From positions 1-64,000 of IMG/VR virus record IMGVR_UViG_3300032215_000643: 64,000 bases of DNA. One strand, 5' to 3'. Position numbers and translations under genes: made by a program. Below are positions 6,878 through 59,921 of this stretch, piece after piece; position 1 is the first letter of the stretch, and each line of letters begins with the position of its first letter. Origin of the DNA: a virus. The notes below the pieces were generated by a model. The model saw only the letters and a program-made list of their open reading frames with translations, ran no database searches and was not told where the DNA came from.

Positions 6878-9800
6878 TGCTTTCTCTTTCAGGAAATTCA
6901 GAGACAGCGTTTGCAACTTTAAACTCTGTTAACGTAAATCCATTAGCGTATATTGAATGGAATTATAATAATATTACTAAACCGTACATAGTTTATTCTT
7001 CAAGTACGACTTCTAATTCTAATGCAGTTTCTTTAAATAATTCTGCTTCGTGGACTTCTGTTAATGGAAGCATTTCAACTTTATCAACTGGAGGAAATGT
7101 TAATGAAATTGATACTTCTGCAAGTTGTTTAAAATTATCTTTAAATATAAATAAATATTCAGACACATTTTCTTCTAGTTTTTCTGTTCCTTTAGGCTCT
7201 GGGTATTACAAGATAGTTCTTTATTTAAAAAGTTATACAAAAAATACTTATGGTTCCATTGCCCCTATAAAAAGTTTATCGTTGTCTAGCGCAGGCGCGG
7301 GAACAACAACTGGAACGATTAGATATAATATTATTCCATCAAACATTTATTCACAACGGTCTATTATAGATATAAATAATTCAATTAGTGGATCAATTGC
7401 AGTTACTTCTGCTTCTGGAGTCAATGTTAAATGGGCGGTCACAGAAGGACCAGTCGCGTTTGATATTTATAGATCTATAAGCAACTCATCCTACCTACCT
7501 TTCGTAACAACCATCCCTGCAACAAACGATATAATTTCAAGCGGGTCATACACCTACAATGACAATTTTGCAAACATTGCTACATCTATAAGTGCTAACC
7601 CTACAGAAAGCATGAAAATCTCTGTGTCACCTTCAATAAGATTATCTAATTCTGGTACACAATTAACAAATATTCATTATTATTCAAGAGTTTTGTCAGA
7701 TGAAACATTAAGTTTAGAAAAAATTAGTAATTCAATAGAACTTGATGGTTCTAAGTATTATCGGGTTGAAGTGGTTTTCGGTTCTGATGAAACCTTTAAT
7801 AATATTAATTTAGACCTTTCCGTAGAAGCCCCCTTTGTTAATGGTTCTCTACTTCTATGTAATGCTGAAATGTTTAAAACAGACGGGTGGAACTTTGCCA
7901 ATACAGACTACTATCCGATAGAATCAGTATTTGATGCTAATCGTCCAGCAGAAGCATTGCTTCATCCATACATTCAAACAAAAGATCAGTATGTGAATTA
8001 TGGATATTCTAGTCAAAAACAAAAACCAGCCACACCAATATTCTTTTCTCCAGATGATTTTTTTTCAAATACTCAACCTTACAAGCAAGCACATAATTCA
8101 ATATTCAATAAGTTTAAGTATTATATATCTCCTGATTCTTCTACTGGAGTAAATGCTATTAGGGCGCAGTACAAAAATTATTTAGATATAAATAAAATTG
8201 TTATTAAAACTTCTAATGCTGTAGAAGATATGACAAAAATTTCTGGAAGCATACAAGTCTTGGGGCCAAATTATTCAGTACTAACAACTATTCCTCTGCC
8301 TGTAGGGGCGTTTGATTCAAGTGGTATAGCCGTAGCCTATTTTGACGGCATTGCTTGGACGGCTTCAAGCGCATTTTCTGGTAGAGGAAATTGGAAGCCA
8401 CCATCCTTAACAGATTCTGGAATTTTACAAAATGTTACATCAAGTGTGACGGGTCTAGTTTATATAAGTAATTTCCCAAACCCATCAGACAGTAGAAATA
8501 GTGCATCAGTATATGTTAATCCTACTAATAGAATTCATGTTGTAGAAATTTCTCCCAGACTAGAATTAGATATATCTGAATTAATTGAATCATTAAATGT
8601 TTCAAAAACAATGGATGATTCAGATTCTGTTGCAGGGTTCCCGCTTGGATATATGAATTCAAATCAAGGATCATTGGGCATTAGTAATATTCCAGTTTAT
8701 AAAAATGGATTTCCTCAGACCATATTTGATAATATTTCTCAAACTGCAACATTCTCAGATATTCTTCGTCAAGGTGTAAAATTTACTGTTGGATTAATTT
8801 CTCCAACAAATGATTTTACAGAATTTGTTCCTTTTATGACAATGTATTCAGATTCATGGTCAATTAAAGATATTGATTCACTTTCAGTAGATCTTTATGA
8901 TGCTGGAAAATCATTTTTAATGGGGCAGCAGGCACCAGAATATTTGTGTACATCTGAAAATGTTTTTAGTACAATTACAAATATTTTAGATATTTCTGGT
9001 TTTACTGATTATGATTATGATTCATTAAAAGAAATTTTAAATAAAAAAAATAAAATGGTCAACGCTTTCTGGTGTGATAAAACACAAACCGTGTTTGAGG
9101 TATTGAAATCATTTTTTATTGCACATCAAATCGGCGCGTCGTTTGACGAATATGGAATTTTAAGGTTTTACGATTTAGATAAATATATTTATCAATATAC
9201 AAGTAATAATTTTACTCCAGATTTTTCTGTTAATGATGTTCCAGTATTATTAAATAAATCAACAAGTTCTGTTTATTATGAAGCAAATCTTATTAAAGAT
9301 TCTTATAATGTAACAATTGATAAAAAAATCGGTACAGTAACAGTTGATTATTCTATTCCTATAAAAAACTTTACAGCAAATACGCCCAAAAATAAGGCAA
9401 TTGGTGCAAGGGTAACTGACACTCCAACTCATGGAACCTATGTTGAAACAAACGATACAGCATTGATAAGAAGTTACGCATCAAGATCACTTTTTGCCTC
9501 TGAAAAGAAAATGTATTTAGATCCGCATATTGCGATGAGTTCTAAACTTCTGGGTCATACAATTGAAGAATCTGGCATGGCATTTCTTCAGGGTGAATTA
9601 ATTTCGTGGAACGGCCTTGAATATGTTTTTGTGGCTACAAATGTTAATGGTGCAACAGTTCAATCAATTAAAAAAATTATTAAAAATCCCGGTGATAAGC
9701 AGGCATTTGCAGATGAAATTATTTCTTCAATTCCAACAGTTACATCTGTAGAATATTATCCTACAGGATGGGTGGTGGGCCTACAGAGGGGTCTTAGAAA

Positions 9801-11436
9801 CACTAAGCCAAGAAATCATATCAGGTTTGATGACACTGTTAATAAAAAAAGTCACCTTTATAGTACTACTTCTAATTTTAAATCTATGATAATTTATGGT
9901 TCTGGTTCTGCTCAAAGAGTTAACGCTGCTAGTGGCGCGGCTCGCGCTACTTACGGCGATTCAATTGTTACAATGCATAGTAATATTGCTAAATTTAGAG
10001 TTCATAAACCAAAATCTAAAGCAAGACATTTGTTAGCATTGGTTCCTGTAAAAAATAATTCACAAGGTGAATTTGCAGCACCAACTTCAGCATCTAGTTT
10101 TGATTATTTTAGTTTTGTGTTTAAGGGTCCAGATTTAAGAAATCAAAAATTTACTCATGATAAATCTGTAATTGAAGTAGGTTTTTATATTAATCACAGA
10201 ACTTCACCAATCATTTTAGGTATTAGAAATGTTGCAGATAAAAATGCTAAAAATCATTCATGGTTAGCGGTTAATAATTTTTCTGTTACTGGAGTAAAAG
10301 CAAAAACATCTTCAGGTGCTAATTCGGTATTGCATGATTCTCCATTCCAAAGATTAAGCATTGATGTGTTTGATGGGCAGCCACACAGAATTGAGTTGTA
10401 TATAGATTATTCAACTAGCAAATGCTATTTTTATATTAATAAAAAAATGTATGGTCATTACGATATTGTGGGAAACAAGGGTGCCAAAATTGATAAATCT
10501 GGTTCTTCTGATTGGGGCGTGTATGTCGAAAATTTAGAAAAAACTTTTATGAATGTGCGCGGCGATGAAAAAGAATTGAATGTTTTTGTTACAGAAATGT
10601 ATGCTTATGATTATAGTTCTTTGGGCGTTGGTCAGTATTCAGCATTAAAAACAATGTATCCTCCGGTATATACACCATATAATTTTCATTGGCATAATCC
10701 ATATTATCTAGATCAGTTGGTTAAAAATTCTCCAAACTGCGAACCAAATTATTATTATTGGGGGCCACTTGATTTGTTTGGAGTAAAATTTTATGATAAA
10801 GTTGCTTATCAAACAAGCCCAGTGATTCCAAAAACAGCACATATAGATCCACATTTAGGTTATTCTAGTGATTATGCAGGAAGTTTTGAAGTTTTAAAGG
10901 CTGCTACGCTTAAAGATGTAGCAAAATCAAATGTATTTTCCACTCCATTTAGATTTTCATGTATGTTAGTTAATGATAATAGAAATAATCAGTTAGTTTG
11001 GCTTGCAAAAGGGAAGGGAACACAAGGTCCAGAAGTTACTCCATTTACAATAGGCTCAGATTTTATAAAACATAATGATTCAGTTCAAATAGATAAAATA
11101 ATAAATCCATCTAATCTTCAAAATTCTGTAATATTAAAAACTGATTGGTTGCAATCTTCACAGGAAGCAGAAAAACTTTTAGAAACTGCCGTATTTTTTG
11201 CTAATTCTTTTAGCACTACGGTTAATGTTCAGTTGTTTGGAAACCCCTTATTGCAGGTAGGAGATATTTGTCAATTTATTTATACAAAAAAAAGAATTGG
11301 TTACGATCCTGAAAATGCATCCATAGCCCCTCTATTCTTCTTGGTGAAAGAAGTTAATCAAGATTTTACGGGTGGGCTAACCACTAACCTATCTTTAAGA
11401 CCATTGTTTAATACAAATTCAACAAGCATTGCATGA
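6877..11436 (+). CDS. Large minor tail / baseplate-hub protein (1519 aa, GTG start)
   Basis: Position in tail module; 'FDEYGILRF' and C-terminal 'GNPLLQVGD' motifs typical of siphophage hub proteins. Confidence 0.65.
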   Translation: MLSLSGNSETAFATLNSVNVNPLAYIEWNYNNITKPYIVYSSSTTSNSNAVSLNNSASWTSVNGSISTLSTGGNVNEIDTSASCLKLSLNINKYSDTFSSSFSVPLGSGYYKIVLYLKSYTKNTYGSIAPIKSLSLSSAGAGTTTGTIRYNIIPSNIYSQRSIIDINNSISGSIAVTSASGVNVKWAVTEGPVAFDIYRSISNSSYLPFVTTIPATNDIISSGSYTYNDNFANIATSISANPTESMKISVSPSIRLSNSGTQLTNIHYYSRVLSDETLSLEKISNSIELDGSKYYRVEVVFGSDETFNNINLDLSVEAPFVNGSLLLCNAEMFKTDGWNFANTDYYPIESVFDANRPAEALLHPYIQTKDQYVNYGYSSQKQKPATPIFFSPDDFFSNTQPYKQAHNSIFNKFKYYISPDSSTGVNAIRAQYKNYLDINKIVIKTSNAVEDMTKISGSIQVLGPNYSVLTTIPLPVGAFDSSGIAVAYFDGIAWTASSAFSGRGNWKPPSLTDSGILQNVTSSVTGLVYISNFPNPSDSRNSASVYVNPTNRIHVVEISPRLELDISELIESLNVSKTMDDSDSVAGFPLGYMNSNQGSLGISNIPVYKNGFPQTIFDNISQTATFSDILRQGVKFTVGLISPTNDFTEFVPFMTMYSDSWSIKDIDSLSVDLYDAGKSFLMGQQAPEYLCTSENVFSTITNILDISGFTDYDYDSLKEILNKKNKMVNAFWCDKTQTVFEVLKSFFIAHQIGASFDEYGILRFYDLDKYIYQYTSNNFTPDFSVNDVPVLLNKSTSSVYYEANLIKDSYNVTIDKKIGTVTVDYSIPIKNFTANTPKNKAIGARVTDTPTHGTYVETNDTALIRSYASRSLFASEKKMYLDPHIAMSSKLLGHTIEESGMAFLQGELISWNGLEYVFVATNVNGATVQSIKKIIKNPGDKQAFADEIISSIPTVTSVEYYPTGWVVGLQRGLRNTKPRNHIRFDDTVNKKSHLYSTTSNFKSMIIYGSGSAQRVNAASGAARATYGDSIVTMHSNIAKFRVHKPKSKARHLLALVPVKNNSQGEFAAPTSASSFDYFSFVFKGPDLRNQKFTHDKSVIEVGFYINHRTSPIILGIRNVADKNAKNHSWLAVNNFSVTGVKAKTSSGANSVLHDSPFQRLSIDVFDGQPHRIELYIDYSTSKCYFYINKKMYGHYDIVGNKGAKIDKSGSSDWGVYVENLEKTFMNVRGDEKELNVFVTEMYAYDYSSLGVGQYSALKTMYPPVYTPYNFHWHNPYYLDQLVKNSPNCEPNYYYWGPLDLFGVKFYDKVAYQTSPVIPKTAHIDPHLGYSSDYAGSFEVLKAATLKDVAKSNVFSTPFRFSCMLVNDNRNNQLVWLAKGKGTQGPEVTPFTIGSDFIKHNDSVQIDKIINPSNLQNSVILKTDWLQSSQEAEKLLETAVFFANSFSTTVNVQLFGNPLLQVGDICQFIYTKKRIGYDPENASIAPLFFLVKEVNQDFTGGLTTNLSLRPLFNTNSTSIA

Positions 11437-11442
11437 TAAAAT
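11434..11442 (+). promoter_or_regulatory. Extended -10 promoter (TGATAAAAT)
   Basis: Variant of the recurrent TGnTATAAT motif, followed by an AGGAGG SD and the ATG at 11458. Confidence 0.5.
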
Positions 11443-11457
11443 TGTAAAGGAGGAACT

Positions 11458-12099
11458 ATGACTACAGCAGGAAAACCACAACAAAAATCTGTAAGTGTTC
11501 ATCAACAACATTTAACTATTTATAAAGATGATCATAGAAACAATAAAGAGTTTTTAAAAAAACATCCATATACGGTAGTTTTAGATCACAAGGCTCCTAA
11601 AAAACATAAAAAACCTCACGAACATAGTTCTGTTTCAAAGCATCACCCCAATACAAAAACTAAAAAAACTCATCCTACAACTAGGTCAAATTCTCCACAG
11701 CATAATGCTCCACATCAACCAGAATTGAATACTGTAGAGTCAGATGATGATTTTGAGTTAGAGCAGGCAGGGATTGAGACTAATGAAGATTTTAGTTCAA
11801 AAGAAGATTCTGACAGTCAGGGTTCTTTTCTTTTTCATGAAATTTCACATGAAGATTATGATCCAGAAATAGATTTATTAGATCAAAGAGACCAAGTTCG
11901 TAGTCCGGTTTATGCTGGAACTACAGAACAACCGCAAACAAATTTAGATCCAATTGATAACGTAACAGTTGATGCAAGTTCTTTTGTGCTACAAAAAGAT
12001 GCTCAAGACGGATCTGTTTCTTTTAAAGCAAGTGTTATTTTTGACTTTGAAGATAACCTTGATGATTATGATATTATTGTGACTCATATAAGTGGTTAA
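11458..12099 (+). CDS. Hypothetical tail-module protein with His/Lys-rich N-half and acidic C-half
   Basis: Strong SD (AAGGAGG); low-complexity, charge-segregated sequence. Confidence 0.6.
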   Translation: MTTAGKPQQKSVSVHQQHLTIYKDDHRNNKEFLKKHPYTVVLDHKAPKKHKKPHEHSSVSKHHPNTKTKKTHPTTRSNSPQHNAPHQPELNTVESDDDFELEQAGIETNEDFSSKEDSDSQGSFLFHEISHEDYDPEIDLLDQRDQVRSPVYAGTTEQPQTNLDPIDNVTVDASSFVLQKDAQDGSVSFKASVIFDFEDNLDDYDIIVTHISG

Positions 12100-12109
12100 T
12101 GTGAACCGA

Positions 12110-12118
12110 TGGTATAAT
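12110..12118 (+). promoter_or_regulatory. Extended -10 promoter (TGGTATAAT)
   Basis: Intergenic match to TGnTATAAT; implies the next gene starts at ATG 12146 rather than 12092. Confidence 0.6.
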
Positions 12119-12145
12119 TATCATAGTGAATTTGGGGAAAAATGT

Positions 12146-13048
12146 ATGGATTTGACTGGAACATATAGAATAACTTCCTCTGGTTCCGTCATTGGCGAAT
12201 ACCAGAATATGATAACCACTAACGGCCTTCTAGCGATTAATCAATATCTAGCAGGTCTTATTCCTAGTTGGGCTGGCTCACTTGGTATTGGTACGCTTTA
12301 CAACAATATAACTGCATCTTCTACTGTAGCCTTAGACTATGAACTTAAAAGGTATCCTATAACATTAAAATCTTACAGAACAGTATCAAGTTCTGTCAAT
12401 CAAATTGCTCTAAAAGCAACAATTGATCCAGATGCAGTCTTTCAGGCATACGAACTGGGTGTCTTTCCAATGGTTGTTCATGATGCAACATATCCAGATC
12501 ATTATCCAATTACTGATTTTTCAGAACAGTTAAGCGGCTCCAGCCTTTGGACAATTGCTGGTGTAGCAGCAACAACAACTTCTTCAAGCGTGAGAGTTGG
12601 ATTATACACAATTGCCCTCCCAGCAGGAAGCACAACATCAAATTCTGTTTCAATAAACACAACAACATATACAGAAGCAGATTATGCTAATTTATTAATG
12701 TACACACCAGCGTCTATAACTTCTGGATCATTTACGGTGCGACTTGGTGACGATTCTTCGGTACAAAATGTTTGGACTTCATCTATAGTTTTTTCAGCAC
12801 CTTCCGCTGGTTATTATTCTGTAGCCGCAGACTTTGGAACAAAACCAACATTTTCTGATTATGCAGTTACATGTTCAGTAACTTATGCTGGTACTGGAAC
12901 TATACAATTGGATCATTTGCAATTTGCTACTGGAGATACAAAAACTACAGATTTTAAATTAGTTAGTAGAACTGGACAATCAACTCCATTGTTTACAAAA
13001 ACATACGGACAGCCTATGGAAATTGAATATTATATTCAGGTAACGTAA
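12146..13048 (+). CDS. Minor tail / baseplate protein
   Basis: N.IT..G...I..YLAG...GIG...L.YE..R...ELG pattern of tail-fibre attachment proteins; start revised to MDLTGTY. Confidence 0.6.
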   Translation: MDLTGTYRITSSGSVIGEYQNMITTNGLLAINQYLAGLIPSWAGSLGIGTLYNNITASSTVALDYELKRYPITLKSYRTVSSSVNQIALKATIDPDAVFQAYELGVFPMVVHDATYPDHYPITDFSEQLSGSSLWTIAGVAATTTSSSVRVGLYTIALPAGSTTSNSVSINTTTYTEADYANLLMYTPASITSGSFTVRLGDDSSVQNVWTSSIVFSAPSAGYYSVAADFGTKPTFSDYAVTCSVTYAGTGTIQLDHLQFATGDTKTTDFKLVSRTGQSTPLFTKTYGQPMEIEYYIQVT

Positions 13049-16000
13049 TGGCTAATTCAAAAGATATTTATAAACTTCAGCCGGGTGGAACATATTCTGT
13101 ACAAATTGTACCTAAAGGTTCTGATCCTAATAATCCCGGTAACGTAAAATCATTTAATACCACTTTTACTGTTCCAACAACAAATACTGATGGAACACCA
13201 ATTCAAACTACTAACAGTTCAGTAAAGACGTTATATATTGGAAGTGGTGGTCTAATTGTTGGTGATGGTGTCACTGCTTGGGTGCAAATAACATCTGAAG
13301 GTTTATTTGGATATAATGCTGGTACACCAATTTTTGGTTTGCCAACTGACCCATCAGCATCACCATTCTTTACAAGTTTTTCATTAACTCAAACTGGAAT
13401 GACAGCAATTGGGCAAGTTGTAACTAGTGCAAGCACCACTTTGAATTCAGCATCAGTAAAAGTTCCAATTGGTACTGCTTCTTTAATTAGTCCCGGTTGG
13501 TCAATTTATGGATTACCATTTTCTACTGCAGGAAATGGTGTTGTTAGTATTAGAAAAACGCCTCCTACTGCAGTTCTTATTCTTTCTAAAGTTGCTACTG
13601 CTACTTATGCAACAGGAACAAGTGCATCAATTATTCCAAATGCAAATATAATTGTTGGAACTTCTACTAATAATAATATTACAATTAGAGGACAAGGAAC
13701 CCCCGGTCAGGCTGGTGCAATTTTTTCAGTGATTGGTGGTTCCGCAACATTGCCAACATCTGGTTCTGGATTTTATATAGATGAAGTTGGAAAATTCAGA
13801 TTTGCAAGTTCTCCTTCCGCATATATTTCAGGTGATGGTTCAGGTAACCTTACAGTTTCAGGAACTATCGTTGCAACTGCTGGAAATATTGGTGGTCTGA
13901 CACTCGCAGCAGATAAACTAAGTGCATCTTCGCCGGGATCTTATGTTGGTATTTCTGGAAGCGGAAACTACGCATTTTGGGCGGGAAGTGCAAACCCTGC
14001 TCTGGCACCATTTTCTGTAACTAATACTGGCGTTGTTACTGCAAGCAATTTAGTTATATCAAACGCTGTAACAGTAGGCTCGCTTGGAGGATTCTATTCA
14101 GGACTTACTCCAAGTTCTTCCATGTCAATTTTTGCTGGAGCAACAGCAAGTACGGGTACAGGTGCAACATTTTGGGTAACCAATACTGGTAGCGTTTATT
14201 CAGCAGGAGGGGCTTCTTTTCAAGGTCCAATACTTACCGCTGGCAACCTAGTTGGTTCATCCTTATCGGGCACTTCTAATAATAGCGGGAGCCTTGTAGG
14301 TGGAGCAATATATGTTCCATCAATTGGAGCAGCAAAATTCTATGTAGATTCTAGCGGAAATATGACAGCGGCAGGTGCTTCTGTAAGTGGATCTATTGTT
14401 GCTGCTGCAGGCAATATTGGCGGCTGGATAATTGCTCCTACAAGTTTAACTTCTGGCACTGGTGCAAGCGCAGTAGGGTTAACTACAGGGAATTATGCCA
14501 TTTATGCAGGTAATACGACAGCATCTTCTGCACCATTTAATGTAACAAATACTGGAATTTTAACAGCAAGTGGTGCTAATATTACAGGTAATATAACCGC
14601 TAACTCTGGTTCAATCGGCGGATTTACTATTAACGGAAATACTCTATATGGAGGAACATCAGGTTCTATAGTTGGGTTAAATCCAACTAGTGGATCTTCA
14701 GTAATTTTTGCAGGGGCAACTTCAAGTGCAGGCACAGGAGCAACATTTTGGATTTCAGGAAATGGAAATATTTATTCTTCTGGAGGTGCCTCATTTGCTG
14801 GTCCTGTATTTTCAGCAGCGTCTATTTCTTCTCCAACTCTTTCAGGTAATATAACCAACAGTGGAAGTATTGTCGGTGGTTCGATATTTGTACCAAATGC
14901 GAGTTCTCCAACTTTCAGAGTTGATTCTTCTGGAAATATGTTGGCAACAAGTGCCTCAATTAGTGGTTCTATAACTTCAAATGCTGGTAATATTGGTGGT
15001 TGGGCAATTACTTCTGGTAATCTTACTTCCGGCTCTGGTGCAACAACAGTTGGTTTAACTACAGGAACATATGCTATTTATGCAGGTAATGCAACTCCAT
15101 CATCTGCTCCTTTCAGTGTTACGAATACTGGTAATTTAATTGCAACAAATGCGACAATTAGCGGATCAATTAATGCAAGTTCTGGAACTTTTAGCGGAAT
15201 ACTAAATGCTACTACGGGTAGTATTGGTGGATTCTTAATTAACAATAATAGTCTATCTTCTTCTGGAGTTCTTATTTCTTCAAGTGCTGGATTAAGTTTA
15301 GGTTCTGCTGGTCAGTTTACAGTAAATCAAGCAGGAGCAATGGTTGCTCAAACTGCTTCAATCACAGGACAAATATCTGCAAGTTCAGGAAACATTGCAG
15401 GATGGAGTTTGACTAATCAAGAAATTGGAACTGGTACGGGAATAAATAGAATTGCTTTAAACTCTACCGCTTCACCTAAAATTTATATTGGTTATGGTAA
15501 TTATGGAACGGGAGATACAGGATTTTATGTAGATTCCGCAGGATATTTCTCCCTTGGAAATCAATTGACCTTCGCCCCCGGTAAAGGTACTGCTTCAATT
15601 ATTACAACATCTGCTACTTTTACAAATAACTCAGCAGTTTTAACAACTACATATAACAATAGTTCTAGTGTGATTATTCCCGGCATGTTGGTCACAAGCC
15701 TTGTCCTTCCAACTGGTGTCAAAGTTGCAAGCGTTACTTATGGTACAAGTGCTACAGCATACCTTAACTATGTTTACCCCGGCACTACGCAAACAACTAA
15801 TACAACTTTCCAGTCAGATAATCTTTCTTTGCTTACCGTTAATGGAACAATTCGCGGGGCTATAGATTCAATAAACCCAATTAGTTCCCCCACCTTGTTT
15901 ACTACAGTTACATCTGCTTCCATTAACACTGCTGCCAGTGCAGTATTATTTACTTCTTCTGCTGGACACTTTTTCAGTCCATCTAGTATTCTAATATTCT

Positions 16001-19000
16001 CAAATTTGCCAGCAACAAATAATTTGAATTTACTTAATTATGCTGCATCTGCAGGAAATGCTTATTTGATTACAAGCACTCCAAACAGTATGCAGTTTAC
16101 AATTAACTATGCGGGACTGGGTTTGACAACTGGAACTCCAGTAATATCAAGTCGTGCAAGTATTCAGCAGTTAACGATGGGTCTTCATCCAGCAATGAAT
16201 GCTGGAACATCATGGGCCAATAATACGGGAACAGGCGTGAGGCTTGATGATTATAACTGGTGGTTAGTCAATAATCAATTCCGCGTAGGAAATGCATTAT
16301 CTTATTTTAAGTATGATGGTACTCAATTCAGAGTTGCTGGTGGAGGTACTTATAACTTAATCATGCAAGTTGGTGCCCAAGATTCTGCTAATCAGTTTGC
16401 TATAACTTCTGGATCAACTGGCACTTACAGTAGTTCTACCACTCCTTTCTATGTAGATGGTTCTGGAAAGATGAGTTTGGGAACGGGTCTTGTTTGGACA
16501 GGTTCAGGATTATCAATTGTCGGATCGGCTTCAATTAGTGGATCAATTGTGGCAAGCGTCGGTTCGGTTGGTGGATGGAACATTGCAGCGAATACCCTTT
16601 CTAGTGGATCAATTAACCTTGTATCAGGTGCTGCTCCTAAAATTTATATCGGGGCAGGTACTTATAGTTCATCAAACACTCCATTTTATGTTGATAATAG
16701 TGGCAGCCTTAGCATTGGAAATAAACTCACATGGAATGGCTCTAGGCTTTTAATTGGTGACCAAACAGGCGGTGCAGTTGGATTCCAAGCACCTTCTAAT
16801 CCATCAGCAAGCGATATTGCAATTTATGCGGGTGCTTCAGCATTATTAGGAGCATCAGCAGCACCTTTTAGAGTAACTTATGATGGGACAATGTATGCAA
16901 CTGGGGCGGTTATATCAGGATCACTCACTGCAACTTCTGGACAAATTGGAACTGGTAATGCAAATAATCGTTGGTATATAGGAACATCTGGTAATTATGG
17001 ATCAATCAGAAATTATCCACTTACAGCAAGTTATCCCGCCTTTGTACCGTCAGTAGGAACTAGTGGATATTCTAATACTTATTCACCTTCATACTCTGCC
17101 TATGTAGTTTCTGATTCATATTATCCTGCAGCAATAGAAATAGATTCTTCAGGTTATATTCATATAAGAAGAAAAAATTATCAACCTTACGATACATCGT
17201 CTGCACAAAATTTGGCACAAGGAATCGTCCTTGATTCAACTGCAAATAATGATCGCATTAATGCAATCATGTGGTGGGGAGATGGTTCTGAAACACAAGA
17301 CATAATAGATCAAGTTCCTTTCTATGTAGATATAAATGGAAATCTTTACAGCAAAACAGCAGATACAGATACCCTTTCTGCAAATACTTTATCTGTTGGA
17401 AATCTTTCTGCAGACAATTTTTATTTAGGAGAATTTGCTGGCGAAGGTTCTGGTTTCAAAACACTTTCAGCAGTATCGGACGGACTTGGATACATAACTT
17501 ATACAATTAACGATACTAGTAGTCAGGGTTTCTATTCTTATGGAATCGCTATTGGTGAAAAAATAAAAATTTCAAACATGCCATTGTCATCAAATGGTTC
17601 TGATATTTATAATTCATCTAAGCAACAGGATTTAACATTTACTATATCTGATCAAAATTTTTCGGATGCCACTCAAACATTTAGCGTTTTTAATCCTGAT
17701 GCTATTGGTATATATGAAAGTATTGCTCCTTCAGATTCGGCGTTTGGTATTGTAGTTAACTCGGTTCTTGTTTCTGATGCTATAACTGGAAATGTAGAAA
17801 TTGGACCACAGCATCAAGTTCCAATATCTTATGATGGTTCAGTGCCAAGGGGTATTTCTGATGGAGATATTTATTTAGATTTAGTTAAATTACCTCCATA
17901 TCCTTCTTTTTATGAATTAAAAGGTCCAGCACCCTTCTACCCAGTTTCTCCATCTGTAACAAATGCTGTCGCAAACAATTACCAGAAGCACCCATTGTTC
18001 TCTAACATACAGGTTCAAGTTCCTGCAGATGGAGTTTTGAAAGCAAAATTTAAAGGAATGTATAGATTTAGTAATGTTGATACAATAATTGGAGCATTCA
18101 TGTCTGCTTTTCCAATATCAAAAATAGTTAATGTATCTGGGATAGCCTCGCAACCTTGGGTTTATTCTTCTTTTGATAATAGTTCAAATGATATTGGTCC
18201 TAGTGCTTCTTTAATAACAACAGCAAGTAATTTTTCTGGTGGAATATCTGCAACAGCAACAGTTACTGCAGCAACAACGGGGATACCTATTCTTTCTGCA
18301 GGTAGAATTTTTATTCCAGCAAATTCACTTTTTAGTTCTTCTACAGTAGCAGCAACGAATGTATCATTTGATAATGATAATATTTTGGATGGCATGTTCT
18401 TATCCGCTTCTGTTAGTGGTTCTAGTGGACCGGGTACTTTTACGGCAAGTATATCAAATATTACAACAGGATTTTTTTCTGTTGGAACATTAATAATCCC
18501 AGCATATACTGCATCCTTAAGTAATCCTACTGCTAGTATTATTTCTACAAATGCATCTGTGCCCGGTGCAATTGTTCCCGGCATGATCATAAGGGATAGC
18601 AGTTCAAAACTGTATCAGATTAAAACATTTTCATTATCAAATAATATTGGAGTTGTTACTCTTACGGCCTCAACAACATCTGTGAATCTTTCAGCATCAG
18701 TGTTTAATGCAGTATCCCTTGGGACAACTATTCCATCTAACCTTGTATATAACGCATCGGCTTTTAATGTTTTTAAAATATCTTCTTTTGTAAATTCAAA
18801 TTTTGCATTAACACCAGCATCAACTCAATTTTTAGTAACTGATCAAACAGAAGGTAATGCGCTAGGATGGCAAACATATACAAAAATTCTCGGCTTTACC
18901 CCCCCTGCTATTTATCAAAGTTTTTCATTCGAAAAAGTAATACCATTAAAAAATGTTCAACAGGGCGGGCAAATAATGAATTTTGACTATAACGCTTTTT

Positions 19001-19131
19001 ATTATGGAACAACTGCTCCAAGTGTTACATACAGTCATTGGCAATTTGAATATTATCCTTATGGATATTACAGTGGAGATACTTTCTCTGGAGGAAGCGA
19101 AACTCCAACAACTCCGACAATTGGTATATAA
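13048..19131 (+). CDS. Very long tail fibre / tail-tip protein (2027 aa) with internal beta-repeats
   Basis: Repeated G.IGGW.I....L..G....VGL..G.YAIYAG....APF.VTNTG units; very rich in Ser/Thr/Gly/Ala. Confidence 0.75.
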   Translation: MANSKDIYKLQPGGTYSVQIVPKGSDPNNPGNVKSFNTTFTVPTTNTDGTPIQTTNSSVKTLYIGSGGLIVGDGVTAWVQITSEGLFGYNAGTPIFGLPTDPSASPFFTSFSLTQTGMTAIGQVVTSASTTLNSASVKVPIGTASLISPGWSIYGLPFSTAGNGVVSIRKTPPTAVLILSKVATATYATGTSASIIPNANIIVGTSTNNNITIRGQGTPGQAGAIFSVIGGSATLPTSGSGFYIDEVGKFRFASSPSAYISGDGSGNLTVSGTIVATAGNIGGLTLAADKLSASSPGSYVGISGSGNYAFWAGSANPALAPFSVTNTGVVTASNLVISNAVTVGSLGGFYSGLTPSSSMSIFAGATASTGTGATFWVTNTGSVYSAGGASFQGPILTAGNLVGSSLSGTSNNSGSLVGGAIYVPSIGAAKFYVDSSGNMTAAGASVSGSIVAAAGNIGGWIIAPTSLTSGTGASAVGLTTGNYAIYAGNTTASSAPFNVTNTGILTASGANITGNITANSGSIGGFTINGNTLYGGTSGSIVGLNPTSGSSVIFAGATSSAGTGATFWISGNGNIYSSGGASFAGPVFSAASISSPTLSGNITNSGSIVGGSIFVPNASSPTFRVDSSGNMLATSASISGSITSNAGNIGGWAITSGNLTSGSGATTVGLTTGTYAIYAGNATPSSAPFSVTNTGNLIATNATISGSINASSGTFSGILNATTGSIGGFLINNNSLSSSGVLISSSAGLSLGSAGQFTVNQAGAMVAQTASITGQISASSGNIAGWSLTNQEIGTGTGINRIALNSTASPKIYIGYGNYGTGDTGFYVDSAGYFSLGNQLTFAPGKGTASIITTSATFTNNSAVLTTTYNNSSSVIIPGMLVTSLVLPTGVKVASVTYGTSATAYLNYVYPGTTQTTNTTFQSDNLSLLTVNGTIRGAIDSINPISSPTLFTTVTSASINTAASAVLFTSSAGHFFSPSSILIFSNLPATNNLNLLNYAASAGNAYLITSTPNSMQFTINYAGLGLTTGTPVISSRASIQQLTMGLHPAMNAGTSWANNTGTGVRLDDYNWWLVNNQFRVGNALSYFKYDGTQFRVAGGGTYNLIMQVGAQDSANQFAITSGSTGTYSSSTTPFYVDGSGKMSLGTGLVWTGSGLSIVGSASISGSIVASVGSVGGWNIAANTLSSGSINLVSGAAPKIYIGAGTYSSSNTPFYVDNSGSLSIGNKLTWNGSRLLIGDQTGGAVGFQAPSNPSASDIAIYAGASALLGASAAPFRVTYDGTMYATGAVISGSLTATSGQIGTGNANNRWYIGTSGNYGSIRNYPLTASYPAFVPSVGTSGYSNTYSPSYSAYVVSDSYYPAAIEIDSSGYIHIRRKNYQPYDTSSAQNLAQGIVLDSTANNDRINAIMWWGDGSETQDIIDQVPFYVDINGNLYSKTADTDTLSANTLSVGNLSADNFYLGEFAGEGSGFKTLSAVSDGLGYITYTINDTSSQGFYSYGIAIGEKIKISNMPLSSNGSDIYNSSKQQDLTFTISDQNFSDATQTFSVFNPDAIGIYESIAPSDSAFGIVVNSVLVSDAITGNVEIGPQHQVPISYDGSVPRGISDGDIYLDLVKLPPYPSFYELKGPAPFYPVSPSVTNAVANNYQKHPLFSNIQVQVPADGVLKAKFKGMYRFSNVDTIIGAFMSAFPISKIVNVSGIASQPWVYSSFDNSSNDIGPSASLITTASNFSGGISATATVTAATTGIPILSAGRIFIPANSLFSSSTVAATNVSFDNDNILDGMFLSASVSGSSGPGTFTASISNITTGFFSVGTLIIPAYTASLSNPTASIISTNASVPGAIVPGMIIRDSSSKLYQIKTFSLSNNIGVVTLTASTTSVNLSASVFNAVSLGTTIPSNLVYNASAFNVFKISSFVNSNFALTPASTQFLVTDQTEGNALGWQTYTKILGFTPPAIYQSFSFEKVIPLKNVQQGGQIMNFDYNAFYYGTTAPSVTYSHWQFEYYPYGYYSGDTFSGGSETPTTPTIGI

Positions 19132-53917: not shown

Positions 53918-54958
53918 ATGAAACTGTATCGACAAGAAAACCAACTGTGCTTCGATGACATTTTGTTGGTCCCGAATCCATCTGCTGTAGAAAGTAGAAA
54001 AAACGTAGATTTGTCTATGTCAATTGGATATGGGAATAGAAAGATTGATTTGTATTTGCCTGTTATTTCTTCTCCTATGGATACGGTTACCGAATCTGAA
54101 ATGGCTGTTGAGGTTGCTAAGTTTGGTGGTCTTGGAATTATTCATAGGTATTCTAAGATTGAAGATCAGGCGGCTCAGGTTTTTGAAGTTTCTAAAAAAG
54201 GTTATGCTGTTGGTGCATCTGTTCCAACGTCAGTTAGAGATTCAGTGCTTCCTCAAGTAAAGTCATTGGTTTATGTCGGTGCTAAAGTAATTTTAGTTGA
54301 TACTGCAAATGGTCATAACTTTGCTGCGATTAAGGCTGTTTCAGAAATTAGAAAAGAGTTTCCAGATATTCATATTATGGCTGGAAATGTTTCTACTTGG
54401 GACGGGTTCCTTCATCTTTCTCAGGCTGGAGCAGATTCAGTTCGCGTAGGTATCGGCGGTGGTTCATGTTGCAGTACACGAATTATGACTGGTCATGGCA
54501 TTCCGACATTGGCTTCTATTATGGAAATTTATGAATATCAAGAACGTCTAGATCTTCCTACGTCTATTATTGCAGATGGAGGAATTAGAAATTCTGGAGA
54601 TATGGTAAAGTCATTTGCGGCAGGCGCTGATGCAGTCATGGTTGGATCTATGCTTTCTGGTCACACAGAGTCACCGGGTAATGTTTTTAGGGAAGATGGA
54701 AAAGATTACAAGCGAATTCGTGGCATGGCAAGTTCTCATGCTCAAAAGGATTGGCGTGGTTCTGTAAGTGGTGAAGAGGGCATTTCAACTAAGGTCTTGT
54801 TTAAGGGTCCAGCAGAGAACACTCTTAATTCTATTAGAAACGGTATTTCAAGTGGTTGTTCTTATGCAGGTGTAGAGAGATTAGAAGAGTTAAGTATTAC
54901 ATCTCAGTATGTAAAAGTTTCACCTTTATCTGTAAAGGAGAGTTTGCCTCATGTATGA
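53918..54958 (+). CDS. IMP dehydrogenase / GMP reductase family (no CBS domains)
   Basis: FDDILLVP, SSPMDTVTE, GGLGIIHR, D.ANGH, AGNV, VGIGGGSCCSTR, IIADGGI, GMAS, EG. Confidence 0.9.
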   Translation: MKLYRQENQLCFDDILLVPNPSAVESRKNVDLSMSIGYGNRKIDLYLPVISSPMDTVTESEMAVEVAKFGGLGIIHRYSKIEDQAAQVFEVSKKGYAVGASVPTSVRDSVLPQVKSLVYVGAKVILVDTANGHNFAAIKAVSEIRKEFPDIHIMAGNVSTWDGFLHLSQAGADSVRVGIGGGSCCSTRIMTGHGIPTLASIMEIYEYQERLDLPTSIIADGGIRNSGDMVKSFAAGADAVMVGSMLSGHTESPGNVFREDGKDYKRIRGMASSHAQKDWRGSVSGEEGISTKVLFKGPAENTLNSIRNGISSGCSYAGVERLEELSITSQYVKVSPLSVKESLPHV

Positions 54959-56262: not shown

Positions 56263-58094
56263 CAGGCTTTGAGGATTTCCTAGAAGCGTTAGACGAGAAC
56301 GCCTTTGAAGAGGTGCCCGTTACAATTGAAGAATTTGTTACTTCAAAAGATTATTTAAACTTGCCACCACTTTCTACAAATCAATATACGATGATTAAGG
56401 CTTCTACTCAAATATATAAAAAAGAAACTTTGATTAAGTTGTTTGGTGAGCAAGAAGGTCAAGCAAGATGGAAGCAAACTTGTAATGAAGTAATTATGCA
56501 ATTGGGTAAAGGTTCTGGTAAGGACTACACTTCTACTATTGCCTGTGCGTACATCGTTTACCTGCTCTTGTGTTTAAAAGATCCAGCACGCTATTATGGA
56601 AAGCCTCCCGGCGACAGTATAGATATTATTAATATTGCTATTAATGCTGTTCAGGCTAACAGAGTTTTCTTCAAAGGTTTCCTAACAAGAATCGACAGGT
56701 GCGCTTGGTTTCAGGGGCGGTATGTTGCAAAAGCAAACAGCATAGAGTTTGATAAAGATATTACAGTACACTCAGGTCACTCTCAGAGAGAATCATGGGA
56801 AGGATACAACGTAATTGTAGTGATCCTTGACGAGATTTCTGGTTTTGATTTAGAATCAACTAGTGGTCATGAGCAGGCAAAAACTGCTGGTGCTATTTAT
56901 CGAATGTATAGGGCTTCAGTAAATTCACGGTTCCCCGATTATGGTAAGTTAATCCTGCTATCTTTTCCACGATATAAGAAAGATTTTATTCAACAAAGGT
57001 ATGATGATGTTGTTGCTGAAAAGGAAACTGTTGTTAGAACTCATAGGTTTAAGTTAGATCCCGATCTTCCAGATGGTTCAGAGAAAAATGAATTTGATAT
57101 TGATTGGGAAGAAGATCATATTCTTTCATATGCTGTTCCTAAAGTTTTTGCTTTAAAAAGACCTACATGGGATGTTAACCCAACAAGAACCATTAACGAT
57201 TTTGCAGTAGACTTTTATACTGATCCAGTAGATGCTCTCTCAAGATTTGCTTGTATGCCTCCAGAAGCAGTGGATGCATTTTTTAGGTCACGCGAAAAGA
57301 TTGAAAGAGCCTTTAGAAATTATAATATTGCGGTTGATGAAGATGGCAGGTTCGCAGAATGGTTCCAGCCACAAGAAGATAAATTATACTTTGTTCACGT
57401 TGACCTTGCTCAAAAGCATGATCATTGTGCAGTATCAATGGCTCATGTTGAGAATTGGGTAAACATTAAGATGGGGACTCAAACAAAGGAGGCTGCACCT
57501 AGTATTGTTGTTGATGCTGTAAGATGGTGGACACCAACAAGTACTCAGACTGTTGATTTTACTGAAGTAAAAGATTATATTATTTCTCTTAAGCATAGAG
57601 GGTTTAATGTTGGAATGGTCACCTTTGACCGCTGGAATTCTTTTGACATGATGCAGCAGTTAAAGGCTTACGGAATGAATGCAGAAGTTCTTTCTGTTGC
57701 TAAAAAACATTATGAAGATATGGCTTTAGCGATTATGGAAGAAAGAGTTGATGGTCCTAATATTAAATTGTTAATAGATGAATTGCTTTCTCTTAGAATT
57801 GTTAAAGATAAAATTGATCACCCAAGAAAAGGGAGTAAGGATCTTTCAGATGCTACATGTGGCGCTATTTATAATGCTGTTAGTAGAACGCCTGCGGATC
57901 TTAATCAGGAAGTTCTTATAAAAACTTATGACTATGAAGATTTAGATTTACAAAGGTGGGAGCAAGAGAAAACAGATCGTGGAGTTATTCAATTCCCCGG
58001 TCAAAAAGAAATGCCAAGTGTTCTGCAAGGATTTATGGATTCTTTTCGTGAAGATGATGGACAAGAATTCGTAGATAACTTTACAATATTATAG
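56259..58094 (+). CDS. terL: Terminase large subunit (TTG start)
   Basis: Walker A GKGSGKD, Walker B VILDE, coupling motif LSFP, nuclease HVDLA...D, FDRW, IDHP..GSKD.SDA. Confidence 0.9.
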   Translation: MTGFEDFLEALDENAFEEVPVTIEEFVTSKDYLNLPPLSTNQYTMIKASTQIYKKETLIKLFGEQEGQARWKQTCNEVIMQLGKGSGKDYTSTIACAYIVYLLLCLKDPARYYGKPPGDSIDIINIAINAVQANRVFFKGFLTRIDRCAWFQGRYVAKANSIEFDKDITVHSGHSQRESWEGYNVIVVILDEISGFDLESTSGHEQAKTAGAIYRMYRASVNSRFPDYGKLILLSFPRYKKDFIQQRYDDVVAEKETVVRTHRFKLDPDLPDGSEKNEFDIDWEEDHILSYAVPKVFALKRPTWDVNPTRTINDFAVDFYTDPVDALSRFACMPPEAVDAFFRSREKIERAFRNYNIAVDEDGRFAEWFQPQEDKLYFVHVDLAQKHDHCAVSMAHVENWVNIKMGTQTKEAAPSIVVDAVRWWTPTSTQTVDFTEVKDYIISLKHRGFNVGMVTFDRWNSFDMMQQLKAYGMNAEVLSVAKKHYEDMALAIMEERVDGPNIKLLIDELLSLRIVKDKIDHPRKGSKDLSDATCGAIYNAVSRTPADLNQEVLIKTYDYEDLDLQRWEQEKTDRGVIQFPGQKEMPSVLQGFMDSFREDDGQEFVDNFTIL

Positions 58095-58171: not shown

Positions 58172-58293
58172 GGAGTTGCGAGAGATGATTCCTTGGGATG
58201 GATATAGTTACAGTATCCGAAATATCCACGGGAGCAGACAGGGGAGTCCTCTGATGCTGGTGTGCTGTGGAATTTTGCGCCTCTCGCAACTCT
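58172..58293 (+). ncRNA. Unannotated ~122 nt structured RNA immediately 3' of the tRNA
   Basis: 13 bp closing stem GGAGTTGCGAGAG/CTCTCGCAACTCT, inner GATTCC/GGAATT helix and two hairpins; GC-rich relative to the genome; no credible ORF. Confidence 0.7.
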
Positions 58294-58298
58294 TAAGA

Positions 58299-58307
58299 TG
58301 ATATAAT
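58299..58307 (+). promoter_or_regulatory. Extended -10 promoter (TGATATAAT)
   Basis: Directly after the ncRNA, upstream of the second fibre cassette. Confidence 0.65.
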
Positions 58308-58332
58308 TAAATAAAAGAAATGGTTGTATTTG

Positions 58333-58515
58333 ATGTCTAATATTGATAATGGATACTATATTGTTATTCAGTCTCCCGGTCCAAATAATGTTAATGTTAA
58401 ATCGCCGGGTCCACAGGGACCGCCGGGAACATTTATTAATAATATTGATGGTGGTACTCCTTCATCAGTATATGGAGGAAATATCATTATAGATTCAGGT
58501 GGGGTAGTTCAGTGA
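58333..58515 (+). CDS. Small fibre-associated protein with short collagen-like segment
   Basis: PGPQGPPG and IDGG....IDSGG motifs; start revised to ATG 58333. Confidence 0.6.
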   Translation: MSNIDNGYYIVIQSPGPNNVNVKSPGPQGPPGTFINNIDGGTPSSVYGGNIIIDSGGVVQ

Positions 58516-59921
58516 CAGTTCAAATTCAATTTAGGCGAGGTACCGCTGCTCAGTGGACGAGTGTTAATCCATTACTCTCTGAGGGAGAAATGGGTTTAGA
58601 GTTAGATACTGGAAAGTTTAAGGTTGGTAATGGTTCTACATATTGGAATTCTTTGCCTTATTCTTCTGGTCCTACTGGCGCTACTGGACCGCAGGGTGCA
58701 ACTGGTCCTCAAGGTGCGACGGGTGCAACTGGAGTGCAGGGACCATCTGGAGCAATTTCTGTATCTTCCCCCATTGTAAATTCTGGAACATCAACTTCAG
58801 CATCTCTTTCTTTTAATGGATCTGCTGCTTCTGTAGCATATGCAACTAATTCAGGTTCTTCTACTTATTCTTCAAGTGCTGGCGCTGCCCCAATTCCCGC
58901 AAGTGTTTCCTATTCTGCATCTAGTGGATTAGCAAACAATTCAACAAATTTTGCGGGACAAGCACAATCATATTATGCTCCGATTAGTTCACCTAATCTT
59001 ACAGGAACCCCATTAGCCCCTACTGCTGCATCTGCTACAAACACTACACAGATCGCAACCACGGCCTTTGTTCGTGGAGAAATTTCAAATCTTGTTAATT
59101 CTGCCCCAACAACTTTAGATACGTTAAATGAATTGGCGGCGGCTTTAGGAAATGATCCTAATTTTGCTGCAACAACTGCATCTACAATTGGTCTTAAAGC
59201 ACCAATTGCTAATCCAACTTTTACCGGAACTGTGAATCTTGGTTCTAATGTGGCAACTGGATCAGTTTCTAGTGCTTTAAATTCAGCATCTTTGGCTGGG
59301 CAGCCGGGATCATATTATTATCCTGCATCTTCAATTACCGCTGCTTCTGTAGCCTATGCTACAAATGCTGGTAATGCTACAACTTTGGGTGGACAATCTT
59401 CAGCATACTATTATCCTTCCGCTTCAATTACTACTGCATCAGTTGCTTATTCAACAAATGCCGGTAATTCAGCATCAACATCTCAAACTAATTTTAGTTC
59501 TTTAACAATTTCTGGTTCAAGCGTAGCAACTCAAAATTATGTTAATAATAAGTTTTTCTATGAAACAATTCCTTTTACGGTAACAGGCTCTGTGTCTACT
59601 GCTAGAGCATGGGATTATAGATTCTATAATGATACAGGCGGGACAAGATCAATTAATGGAGTTAGAGCAAGTTTAGGTTCCGCTCCTTCAGGATCTGCTA
59701 TGCTTATCGATGTAAGAAAGAATGGTGTTACCGGAGCGGCAAGTATATTCACGGCATCTAGTATATCCATTCCTTCTGGTTCTATAACATCTGGATTAAT
59801 AACATCTGGATTTAACAGTGGCTCAAGTATAGCCTCTAGTGATTATTTAACTGTGGCGGTAACTCAAGTTGGTTCAACAACTGCCGGTTCAGATTTAGTC
59901 GTTCAAGTTATGTGGAGTTAA
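58512..59921 (+). CDS. Fibre protein: Mtd-N-like head, collagen repeats, fibre repeat and conserved C-terminal anchor domain (copy 2)
   Basis: IQFRRGTAAQW...NP.L.EGE.G.E.DT.KFK.G.G...W..LPY; (GATGPQ)n; APTA....NTTQIATTAFV...LDTLNELAAALGNDPNFA. Confidence 0.85.
   Translation: MTVQIQFRRGTAAQWTSVNPLLSEGEMGLELDTGKFKVGNGSTYWNSLPYSSGPTGATGPQGATGPQGATGATGVQGPSGAISVSSPIVNSGTSTSASLSFNGSAASVAYATNSGSSTYSSSAGAAPIPASVSYSASSGLANNSTNFAGQAQSYYAPISSPNLTGTPLAPTAASATNTTQIATTAFVRGEISNLVNSAPTTLDTLNELAAALGNDPNFAATTASTIGLKAPIANPTFTGTVNLGSNVATGSVSSALNSASLAGQPGSYYYPASSITAASVAYATNAGNATTLGGQSSAYYYPSASITTASVAYSTNAGNSASTSQTNFSSLTISGSSVATQNYVNNKFFYETIPFTVTGSVSTARAWDYRFYNDTGGTRSINGVRASLGSAPSGSAMLIDVRKNGVTGAASIFTASSISIPSGSITSGLITSGFNSGSSIASSDYLTVAVTQVGSTTAGSDLVVQVMWS

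Follow-up and report, generated by a model that had tools for sequence, protein, structure and literature searches.

What is encoded in the 122 nt that separate a phage tRNA gene from the next promoter? The question arises in a 64,000-nt stretch of viral DNA (the window), part of a 78.9-kb IMG/VR virus record that is about 64% complete and whose long ORFs all lie on the + strand. In this record, terL ends at 58094 and is followed by a gene for tRNA-Ile with a UAU anticodon and no encoded CCA (58098–58170/1, + strand, 57.3 bits). Directly behind it, the initial annotation had placed an RNA that starts 1 nt after the tRNA discriminator, ends 5 nt before a promoter, is GC-rich in AT-rich surroundings, and lacks a U-tract. 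Each of these points is confirmed. The element (58172–58293, + strand) occurs once in the 78.9-kb record, begins 1–2 nt past tRNA-Ile(UAU), and ends 5 nt before an extended −10 box (TG-N-TATAAT, 58299–58307, + strand) of the next transcription unit, which keeps a fixed distance from the RNA in relatives. Its GC content is 0.50–0.53 versus about 0.37 in the surrounding DNA, and no U-tract terminator is found at the window copy. A promoter-like site within the end of terL (58058–58087, + strand), recognized solely by its match to the consensus (10/12), is placed to start a transcript just upstream of tRNA-Ile, and 3′ processing of this tRNA would create the 5′ end of the small RNA.

The wider setting contains several other features. 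Three very long + strand ORFs of 1936, 1519, and 2027 aa occupy positions 18–19131 of the window, and an auxiliary nucleotide-metabolism gene, encoding a 346-aa protein of the IMPDH/GMP reductase family (53918–54958, E 2e-96), lies just upstream of the packaging genes. Downstream of the element, the tail fibre protein encoded by 58512–59921 (469 aa) has collagen repeats and an Mtd_N domain. In a Bordetella phage, a diversity-generating retroelement acts on Mtd, and the adjacent fibre gene raised the idea that the element is the template repeat of such a system; this idea was discarded, as the element has no second copy in the record.

Fold of the Window RNA

The + strand of the element folds with a minimum free energy of −49.3 kcal/mol, compared with −35.1 ± 3.4 kcal/mol for 200 shuffled sequences (z −4.1), none of which folds as well. 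Because the − strand folds about equally well (z −4.7), the strand is not given by folding alone. All of the helices proposed at the outset are present in the sequence. The outer clamp stem, P1, pairs 58172–58184 with 58281–58293 (+ strand) through 13 bp, 12 of them Watson-Crick and one G·U. P2 pairs 58187–58192 with 58269–58274, its 3′ strand lying in a GGAAU-rich tail (58269–58280, + strand) that, by eye, is also complementary to 23S rRNA at about 1933–1942. The three-way junction first suggested for this RNA is plausible rather than settled, in that P1 covaries across relatives (see below) and P2 competes with alternative pairings of one GGAAU segment.

The two hairpins differ in their standing. 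The first pairs 58199–58205 with 58222–58228, with an alternative partner at 58213–58218 that corresponds to the second TATCC register already noticed; it is best taken as the family-wide P3 hairpin (58200–58218, + strand), in which 58200–58205 pairs with 58213–58218 and the loop, 58206–58212, carries AGUUAC. The second hairpin (58233–58258, + strand), capped by an AGU triloop, is predicted by folding and is specific to the subfamily of the window, with one compensatory A:U to G:C change seen by eye relative to L014.

An Uncatalogued RNA Family in Phages

Comparison with 80 fetched relatives of terL reveals how the element varies. It is identical in L004–L007 and 95% identical in L014, whose terL has a DNA identity of only 74.5% and whose tRNA one of 85.5%. 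A third set of relatives (L008–L013, L017, and L049) holds, at the same place and with the same length, a very different sequence, in which the outer stem is wholly different yet complementary and a block of about 19 nt is held in common. The tRNA is kept and the element absent in L026 and L071. An exact 15-mer search for the shared block returned mostly chance matches; a degenerate form of the core motif is found in at least 120 IMG/VR contigs. A covariance model built from 20 members with the subfamily of the window left out (R2) gives one match only in the window and the record, at 58174–58291 (36.9 bits, E 6e-7). The model R1, made for the minimal subfamily, covers the whole of 58172–58293 at a score of only 2.5 bits, which identifies the window copy as an expanded variant. 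The covariance models additionally recover members with altered cores in tRNA arrays (L054, L031, L025, L036, and others). That this small RNA family and its fold are real is close to certain.

The initial annotation had recognized no family for the RNA, and database searches bear this out. Rfam 15 (4227 models) reports only the tRNA at the gathering threshold, with no family for the small RNA, and at E ≤ 10 its best non-tRNA match is YrlA, which scores 13.9 bits against a threshold of 69 and overlaps the tRNA. Across twelve loci with minimal members, Rfam likewise returns tRNA and tmRNA only. A blastn search of the cultured phages in INPHARED with the window region and a minimal member gives no match. 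A motif scan of 185,579 GTDB species genomes produces seven matches, of which two are true; both lie on small phage-like contigs binned into MAGs, indicating that the element is not a bacterial gene. Literature searches by motif or topic found no paper on the family or on a phage RNA antisense to rRNA. The family is so far confined to uncultured phage contigs, from lake phages, and is uncatalogued. A partnership of the Y RNA/YrlA type with Ro60 was also considered and set aside, since no TROVE match occurs in the 78.9-kb record, where at about 64% completeness such an absence is unproven.

Two further observations come from individual contigs. A phage contig with a minimal family member also carries a tmRNA gene (L176:8142–8387, − strand, 112 bits). 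In L013, the sequence at the tRNA-Ile place (2397–2476) receives no tRNA call from ARAGORN, is possibly the remnant of a tRNA, and is followed by an intact copy of the small RNA.

Covariation and Architecture

The covariation check proposed with the original description was carried out on a P1 alignment of 66 members fitted to the covariance model. In this alignment, 98.2% of cells are paired and double changes occur at 11 of 11 pairs. Double-change cells number 312, versus 83 in shuffles, and slid controls pair at 32–46%. P1, which spans 11–19 bp in the family, is proven by this covariation. Read without allowing wobble, 55 non-redundant P1 stems contain 641 Watson-Crick pairs, 41 G·U, and 2 A·C. 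The disparity between G·U and A·C shows that the selected molecule is RNA, transcribed from the + strand, and argues against selection on DNA.

The most conserved block of the family, core 1 (58191–58211, + strand), has the consensus CUURGGRUGG, two variable bases, and then UAGUUAC, and is carried in the window at 58192–58211 with one extra base in the variable spot. CUURGGRUGG forms the 5′ strand of P3, and the two variable bases together with the invariant UAGUUAC form its loop. The 3′ strand follows directly after the loop, varies between subfamilies, and frequently pairs through G·U; in the short subfamily, P3 is 92.6% paired and one pair switches from A:U to G:C. The second conserved block, core 2 (58261–58267, + strand), holds GUGC, the GC of which pairs with an upstream GGC or UGC in a small hairpin that is 82% paired, and a GRAU segment follows the block. 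Longer members, the window included, have extra hairpins inserted between the two blocks. One group, termed type B (L224, L091, L175, L184, L185, and relatives), is a circular permutation in which the termini fall after UAGUUAC and the blocks are joined by 3–9 nt.

The settings of individual copies are equally informative about how the RNA is made. In stand-alone copies, P1 is preceded at a few bases by a −10 box and followed by a U-rich tail. Other copies lie 1–5 nt from tRNAs on one or both sides, a spacing that implies release by tRNA-processing enzymes. The tRNA-processing origin first proposed for the window RNA gains from this pattern, because the ends of the RNA coincide with tRNA-processing sites and because it lies between two tRNAs in L054, L031, and L253. 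The shortest members of the family, 77–80 nt long, sit between tRNA-Leu and tRNA-Gly (L054:6270–6346 and L031:5981–6060), in arrays of six to nine tRNA genes with a 3–5-nt spacer on each side.

A position flush against tRNA ends would also suit a self-cleaving ribozyme that trims the tRNA transcript, as would natural circular permutation and the presence of conserved junction strands beside variable helices; additionally, three blocks resemble the pistol ribozyme. Such an activity is highly improbable given that no hammerhead, twister, twister-sister, pistol, hatchet, or HDV-like match is found, even at E ≤ 10 or with minimal members, and that stand-alone copies have nothing to process. Two specific candidates were rejected, the hammerhead because its CUGAUG-like string is confined to the subfamily of the window and the pistol ribozyme because its Rfam model gives no match. 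A CsrA site, a T-box-like UGGN contact, and an AUG-GNN-UAG mini-ORF, each picked out by eye, show no supporting pattern across subfamilies.

A further reading makes the RNA a cis-acting element of the transcript where the late operon begins, either a processing site or insulator separating the terL/tRNA transcript from the next promoter or a polymerase-modifying antitermination RNA resembling HK022 put. In its favour, the RNA comes directly after a promoter at stand-alone loci and directly before the conserved extended −10 box, and all genes run in one direction; in some relatives, P1 and the U-rich tail are terminator-like. A terminator, however, has no need of invariant sequence blocks, and the window copy has no U-tract. 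In several phages, tRNAs on both sides would cut the RNA free of downstream RNA, and circular permutation preserves the fold, not the order of synthesis. A cis-acting role is improbable on these grounds. The discrete noncoding RNA that the initial annotation had offered is the reading to which the sequences point; it is on the + strand and is neither terminator nor ORF.

Genomic Neighbourhood

Clustering of ORFs within 5 kb at 97 non-redundant loci defines a gene set common to carriers: a zinc ribbon protein, DUF7246, a small terminase-like gene, this terL family, Hsp20, and the protease-like MPY protein. Given this shared set, the RNA is a marker of a single broad clade of phages. Immediately upstream of the RNA lies Hsp20 at 33 loci, terL at 27, and the gene for the MPY protein at 13, and at most loci the RNA lies within a few kb downstream of terL. 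The last of these facts is what favours a packaging RNA that works with terminase, a role raised at the outset from the expected co-transcription with terminase. It has become scarcely credible, given that the RNA also occurs inside tRNA arrays or after Hsp20, that Rfam yields no pRNA match, and that inspection finds no mutually complementary pair of loops that could interlock. The constant link to motor genes that characterizes packaging RNA of the phi29 type is absent from the family, in which neighbours vary.

The gene just downstream of the RNA is an HNH endonuclease, from one of two unrelated families, at 36 of the 97 loci. Near-identical phages may have or lack this gene, their sequences parting within the −10 box that directly follows the element, and these two facts would be consistent with a feature that acts at the level of DNA, either a landing pad or target of free-standing homing endonucleases or a recombination joint between modules. 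The 95% identity of the element between two phages whose terL genes are 74.5% identical points the same way, as does the coincidence of its antisense target stretch in 23S rDNA (see below) with the classical I-CeuI homing site. Selection on RNA, visible in the 41 G·U versus 2 A·C pairs and the full covariation of P1, stands against this explanation. Moreover, the record of the window is devoid of any HNH gene, and homing beside a conserved gene accounts for the neighbours, not for the element. A DNA-level feature of this kind is very improbable.

The break itself can be located by comparing 58294–58310 of the window with L004:5036–5060 and L005:2442–2460, where different genes follow despite an identical RNA and terL genes that are 97–99% identical. 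An HNH gene comes after the RNA in L004, L006, and L014, and other genes do so in the window, L005, and L007. The divergence inside the −10 box marks a module joint or a homing insertion point. The HNH genes are read as homing elements settled beside a conserved sequence rather than as partners of the RNA. An obligate partnership with HNH or terminase was rejected, as the record of the window lacks HNH and neighbours vary; a phage RNase III partner was dropped because the same record has no RNase III gene.

Complementarity to 23S rRNA Helix 69

What the initial annotation missed is the complementarity of the core to helix 69 of 23S rRNA. With the E. coli rrnH operon (L296; 16S, 23S, and 5S rRNA) as reference, 58191–58211 of the window pairs with 23S 1910–1930 at 19 of 21 positions, two of them G·U. 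This target comprises the loop of helix 69, the 3′ strand of its stem, and the following linker. The complements of the three invariant 7-mers UAGUUAC, CUUAGGA, and CGUGCAG occur at one site each in the three E. coli rRNAs, at 23S 1910, 1923, and 1962, and no copy in the sense orientation is found in the same sequences. Core 2 of the window is complementary to 23S 1962–1968 at 6 of 7 positions and is weak in this copy.

Energetic and compositional comparisons extend this result. RNAduplex places the best core 1 site in all rRNA at 23S 1910–1930, with energies of −27.1 (window), −24.4, and −20.2 kcal/mol for three variants; shuffles score as well in 0/40, 0/40, and 4/40 cases, respectively. The sole variable positions within the blocks are purines opposite U1926 (A 57, G 13) and U1923 (A 63, G 7), so that pairing is kept as A-U or G·U. 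The variant in L054, L031, and L025 is an exact antisense of 1910–1920, with an identity score of 28 that none of 1000 shuffles reaches. By identity only, the core 1 match is significant in the UA and L054 classes, modest or marginal in the window (36/1000 shuffles as high), and not significant in the AU (145/1000) and UG (347/1000) classes. The minimal subfamily, which is the commonest, leaves the two loop bases facing U1917 and A1918 unpaired. Among all members, the block in L054 and L031 comes closest to an exact antisense of 23S 1910–1929.

Similarity beyond core 1 is found in part of the family. Type B RNAs are colinear with antisense 23S from which 1930–1961 has been deleted, with type A as their permuted counterpart, in which P1 falls near 23S position 1930. 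Once rotated, members align to antisense 23S 1891–2040 with z values of 2 to 6.8 (3.6 for the window), and this segment is the best of 334 windows from both strands of 16S and 23S in 19 of 26 diverse members, the rotation used for both results having been chosen with the antisense hypothesis in mind. For several subfamilies, antisense 23S 1931–2040 is also the best-aligning segment for the part of the RNA outside the core. After removal of core 1, the remainder of 18 members out of 34 still ranks within the top 5% of windows, and that of 7 within the top 1%; the subfamily of the window itself has no antisense similarity outside core 1 (rank 0.24–0.44). A profile HMM of the rotated family (nhmmer) gives no match to the E. 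coli rrn operon at E ≤ 10. The T4 RNAs rnaC and rnaD, taken as a negative control, have no comparable antisense similarity to rRNA.

Conservation of the target was assessed in 61 sampled genomes belonging to the same class as a MAG in which a family contig is binned. No match was obtained in 36 of these; in 22 of the 25 that match, the target stretch is 97–100% identical to E. coli over 74–75 of 75 bases, and the other three have partial matches only. The complementarity of the invariant blocks to 23S rRNA exceeds chance, a result weakened by the nhmmer search and by the identity-only shuffles of two classes. It is probably a selected or inherited feature of the family.

Complementarity of the core to helix 69 suggests an RNA rather than a protein as target. 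The alternative, a stable structured RNA that works through protein binding and serves a host or phage factor as decoy, scaffold, or cofactor, would treat the likeness to antisense 23S as a trace of origin from an inverted rDNA fragment or as partly chance. It would sit well with blocks conserved far more strictly than simple pairing needs, with the negative nhmmer search of the rrn operon, and with the loss of complementarity at the two variable loop bases of the minimal subfamily; a clamp stem, permuted forms, and genes that stand alone with their own promoter and U-rich tail are typical of stable RNP RNAs. Against it, no candidate partner gene travels with the RNA, whose neighbours differ (terL, Hsp20, HNH, tRNAs), and the record of the window has no TROVE, HNH, or RNase III gene. 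Protein binding also leaves unexplained why three invariant blocks map uniquely, and in antisense, to one 60-nt stretch of 23S. It is the kind of explanation that we regard as unlikely and still worth keeping in view. The RNA-polymerase sponge suggested in the initial annotation, whose interpretation is overall partly supported, finds no backing, as the RNA has no 6S-like features and no Rfam match.

A second rRNA likeness is seen in the AU class, the commonest subfamily. The P3 stem-loop of AU-class members matches the 790 loop of 16S rRNA (785–796) in the sense orientation at 11 of 12 bases (for example, L187:1387–1461, − strand), and 30 AU-class members have a BLAST match to this segment. 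At bridge B2b the 790 loop lies next to helix 69, and the likeness could be coincidence or a second mimicry. Mimicry of the 790 loop was rejected as the function of the family, as the two deciding bases vary between subfamilies.

Proposed Mechanism

The reading favoured here, tentatively and at a confidence that stops just short of probable, is that this phage-only family is a stable antisense RNA acting in trans, which is produced through tRNA processing and forms base pairs with helix 69 of 23S rRNA. With similar caution, its working surface may be described as antisense to domain IV of bacterial 23S rRNA. That pairing with 23S is the function of the RNA is possible and a shade less secure. 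These grades, from the family through the complementarity to the function, are set by the negative HMM search, the identity-only shuffles, the result for the subfamily of the window, the hypothesis-led rotation, and the folded and modified state of helix 69.

The form of P3 fits this antisense reading. The complement of helix 69 is displayed in the loop and the 5′ strand of P3, a weak, G·U-rich hairpin that is the mirror image of the helix 69 hairpin, and the pair of mirror-image hairpins has the geometry of kissing-loop antisense systems. Weak pairing and conservation of the 5′ strand only are expected if P3 opens to extend a duplex. In the proposed sequence of events, the RNA would be co-transcribed with tRNA-Ile from the putative promoter within terL, freed when the 3′ end of the tRNA is processed by an RNase Z-type cleavage after the discriminator, and trimmed at its own 3′ end back to P1. 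The P3 loop would then kiss the helix 69 loop of nascent 23S, of a late pre-50S particle, or of the free 50S subunit, after which P3 would open and a duplex of about 20 bp would form. This duplex would keep helix 69 from forming bridge B2a, and maturation of new large subunits or subunit joining would be blocked or diverted, or the rRNA exposed to double-strand RNases. The phage might benefit through host shut-off or through nucleotide economy late in infection.

In late pre-50S particles, domain IV docks last and position 1915 is unmethylated (RluD, RlmH), which would make nascent 23S or late pre-50S particles the likeliest targets. In 70S ribosomes, helix 69 is folded and lies at the interface, and the m3-pseudouridine at 1915 (RlmH) cannot pair with A, so that mature ribosomes may be poor targets. 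Counting against the antisense reading is that a phage would be inhibiting ribosomes on which it depends, a point that needs explanation.

Relation to Known Systems

The closest mechanistic parallels are CopA/CopT of R1, RNA I/RNA II of ColE1, and Sok/hok, in which, as proposed here, a hairpin loop is complementary to the loop of a target hairpin. Shared with these kissing-loop antisense RNAs are a stem that can open to extend the duplex and complementarity to about 20 nt. RNAs of the CopA/CopT type are encoded opposite their targets and act on an mRNA or a primer; unlike them, the phage RNA is encoded in trans, its proposed target is rRNA, and its binding is predicted from sequence.

Helix 69 has also been targeted by design. 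According to Kulik et al. 2017, as cited in PMC12828698, antisense PNA oligomers directed at this same 23S helix can invade it and block translation and growth. These PNAs are man-made, short, and unstructured, unlike the phage RNA.

Among phage RNAs, T4 rnaC and rnaD (species 1 and 2) offer the nearest match in arrangement, being stable RNAs of about 120 nt encoded 1 nt after a tRNA gene; the 119-nt rnaD starts a single nucleotide after a tRNA. The T4 tRNA cluster also resembles the loci of the phage RNA in containing a homing endonuclease gene, the GIY-YIG gene segB, which parallels the HNH genes beside the small RNA. The likeness ends with the arrangement after a tRNA. Homology with either T4 RNA was rejected, as no motif is common to the sequences or folds and neither has an antisense likeness to rRNA. 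T4 rnaC (L295:1409–1547) has a strong fold (z −4.6) that terminates in a tRNA-like T arm, a point of difference from the small RNA family, and the fold of rnaD (L295:1554–1672) is no better than shuffles (z −0.8).

Two other classes of small RNA share single traits with the family. Like 3′ETS-leuZ and other sRNAs from tRNA trailers, the RNA would arise as a by-product of tRNA 3′ processing. Those sRNAs are short, unstructured sponges for other sRNAs, whereas the phage family has a clamped, conserved fold and also occurs as a stand-alone gene. The risiRNAs of C. elegans, also small and antisense to rRNA, exert regulation on it; these eukaryotic 22-nt RNAs depend on Argonaute and are synthesized from rRNA templates, in contrast to a structured, virus-encoded RNA.

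Implications

Whatever the function of the small RNA, a presence in at least 120 contigs, a fully covarying clamp stem, and natural circular permutation make the family a strong candidate for a new Rfam entry. The antisense reading, if true, would account for a very widespread and strictly conserved phage RNA that is absent from databases, would provide a natural precedent for antisense drugs against helix 69, and would supply a tool for trapping late states of 50S assembly. It would also be the first natural antisense regulator of ribosomal RNA in bacteria or bacterial viruses. It is conceivable, although the balance leans against it, that freshwater phages use a dedicated small RNA that pairs with host helix 69 and controls ribosome assembly or subunit joining; with the same reserve, the RNA may derive from an antisense copy of 23S domain IV or have been moulded into the likeness of one. 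If the pairing is real, it would represent a new viral action on host translation, in which an RNA acts directly on rRNA at an intersubunit bridge.
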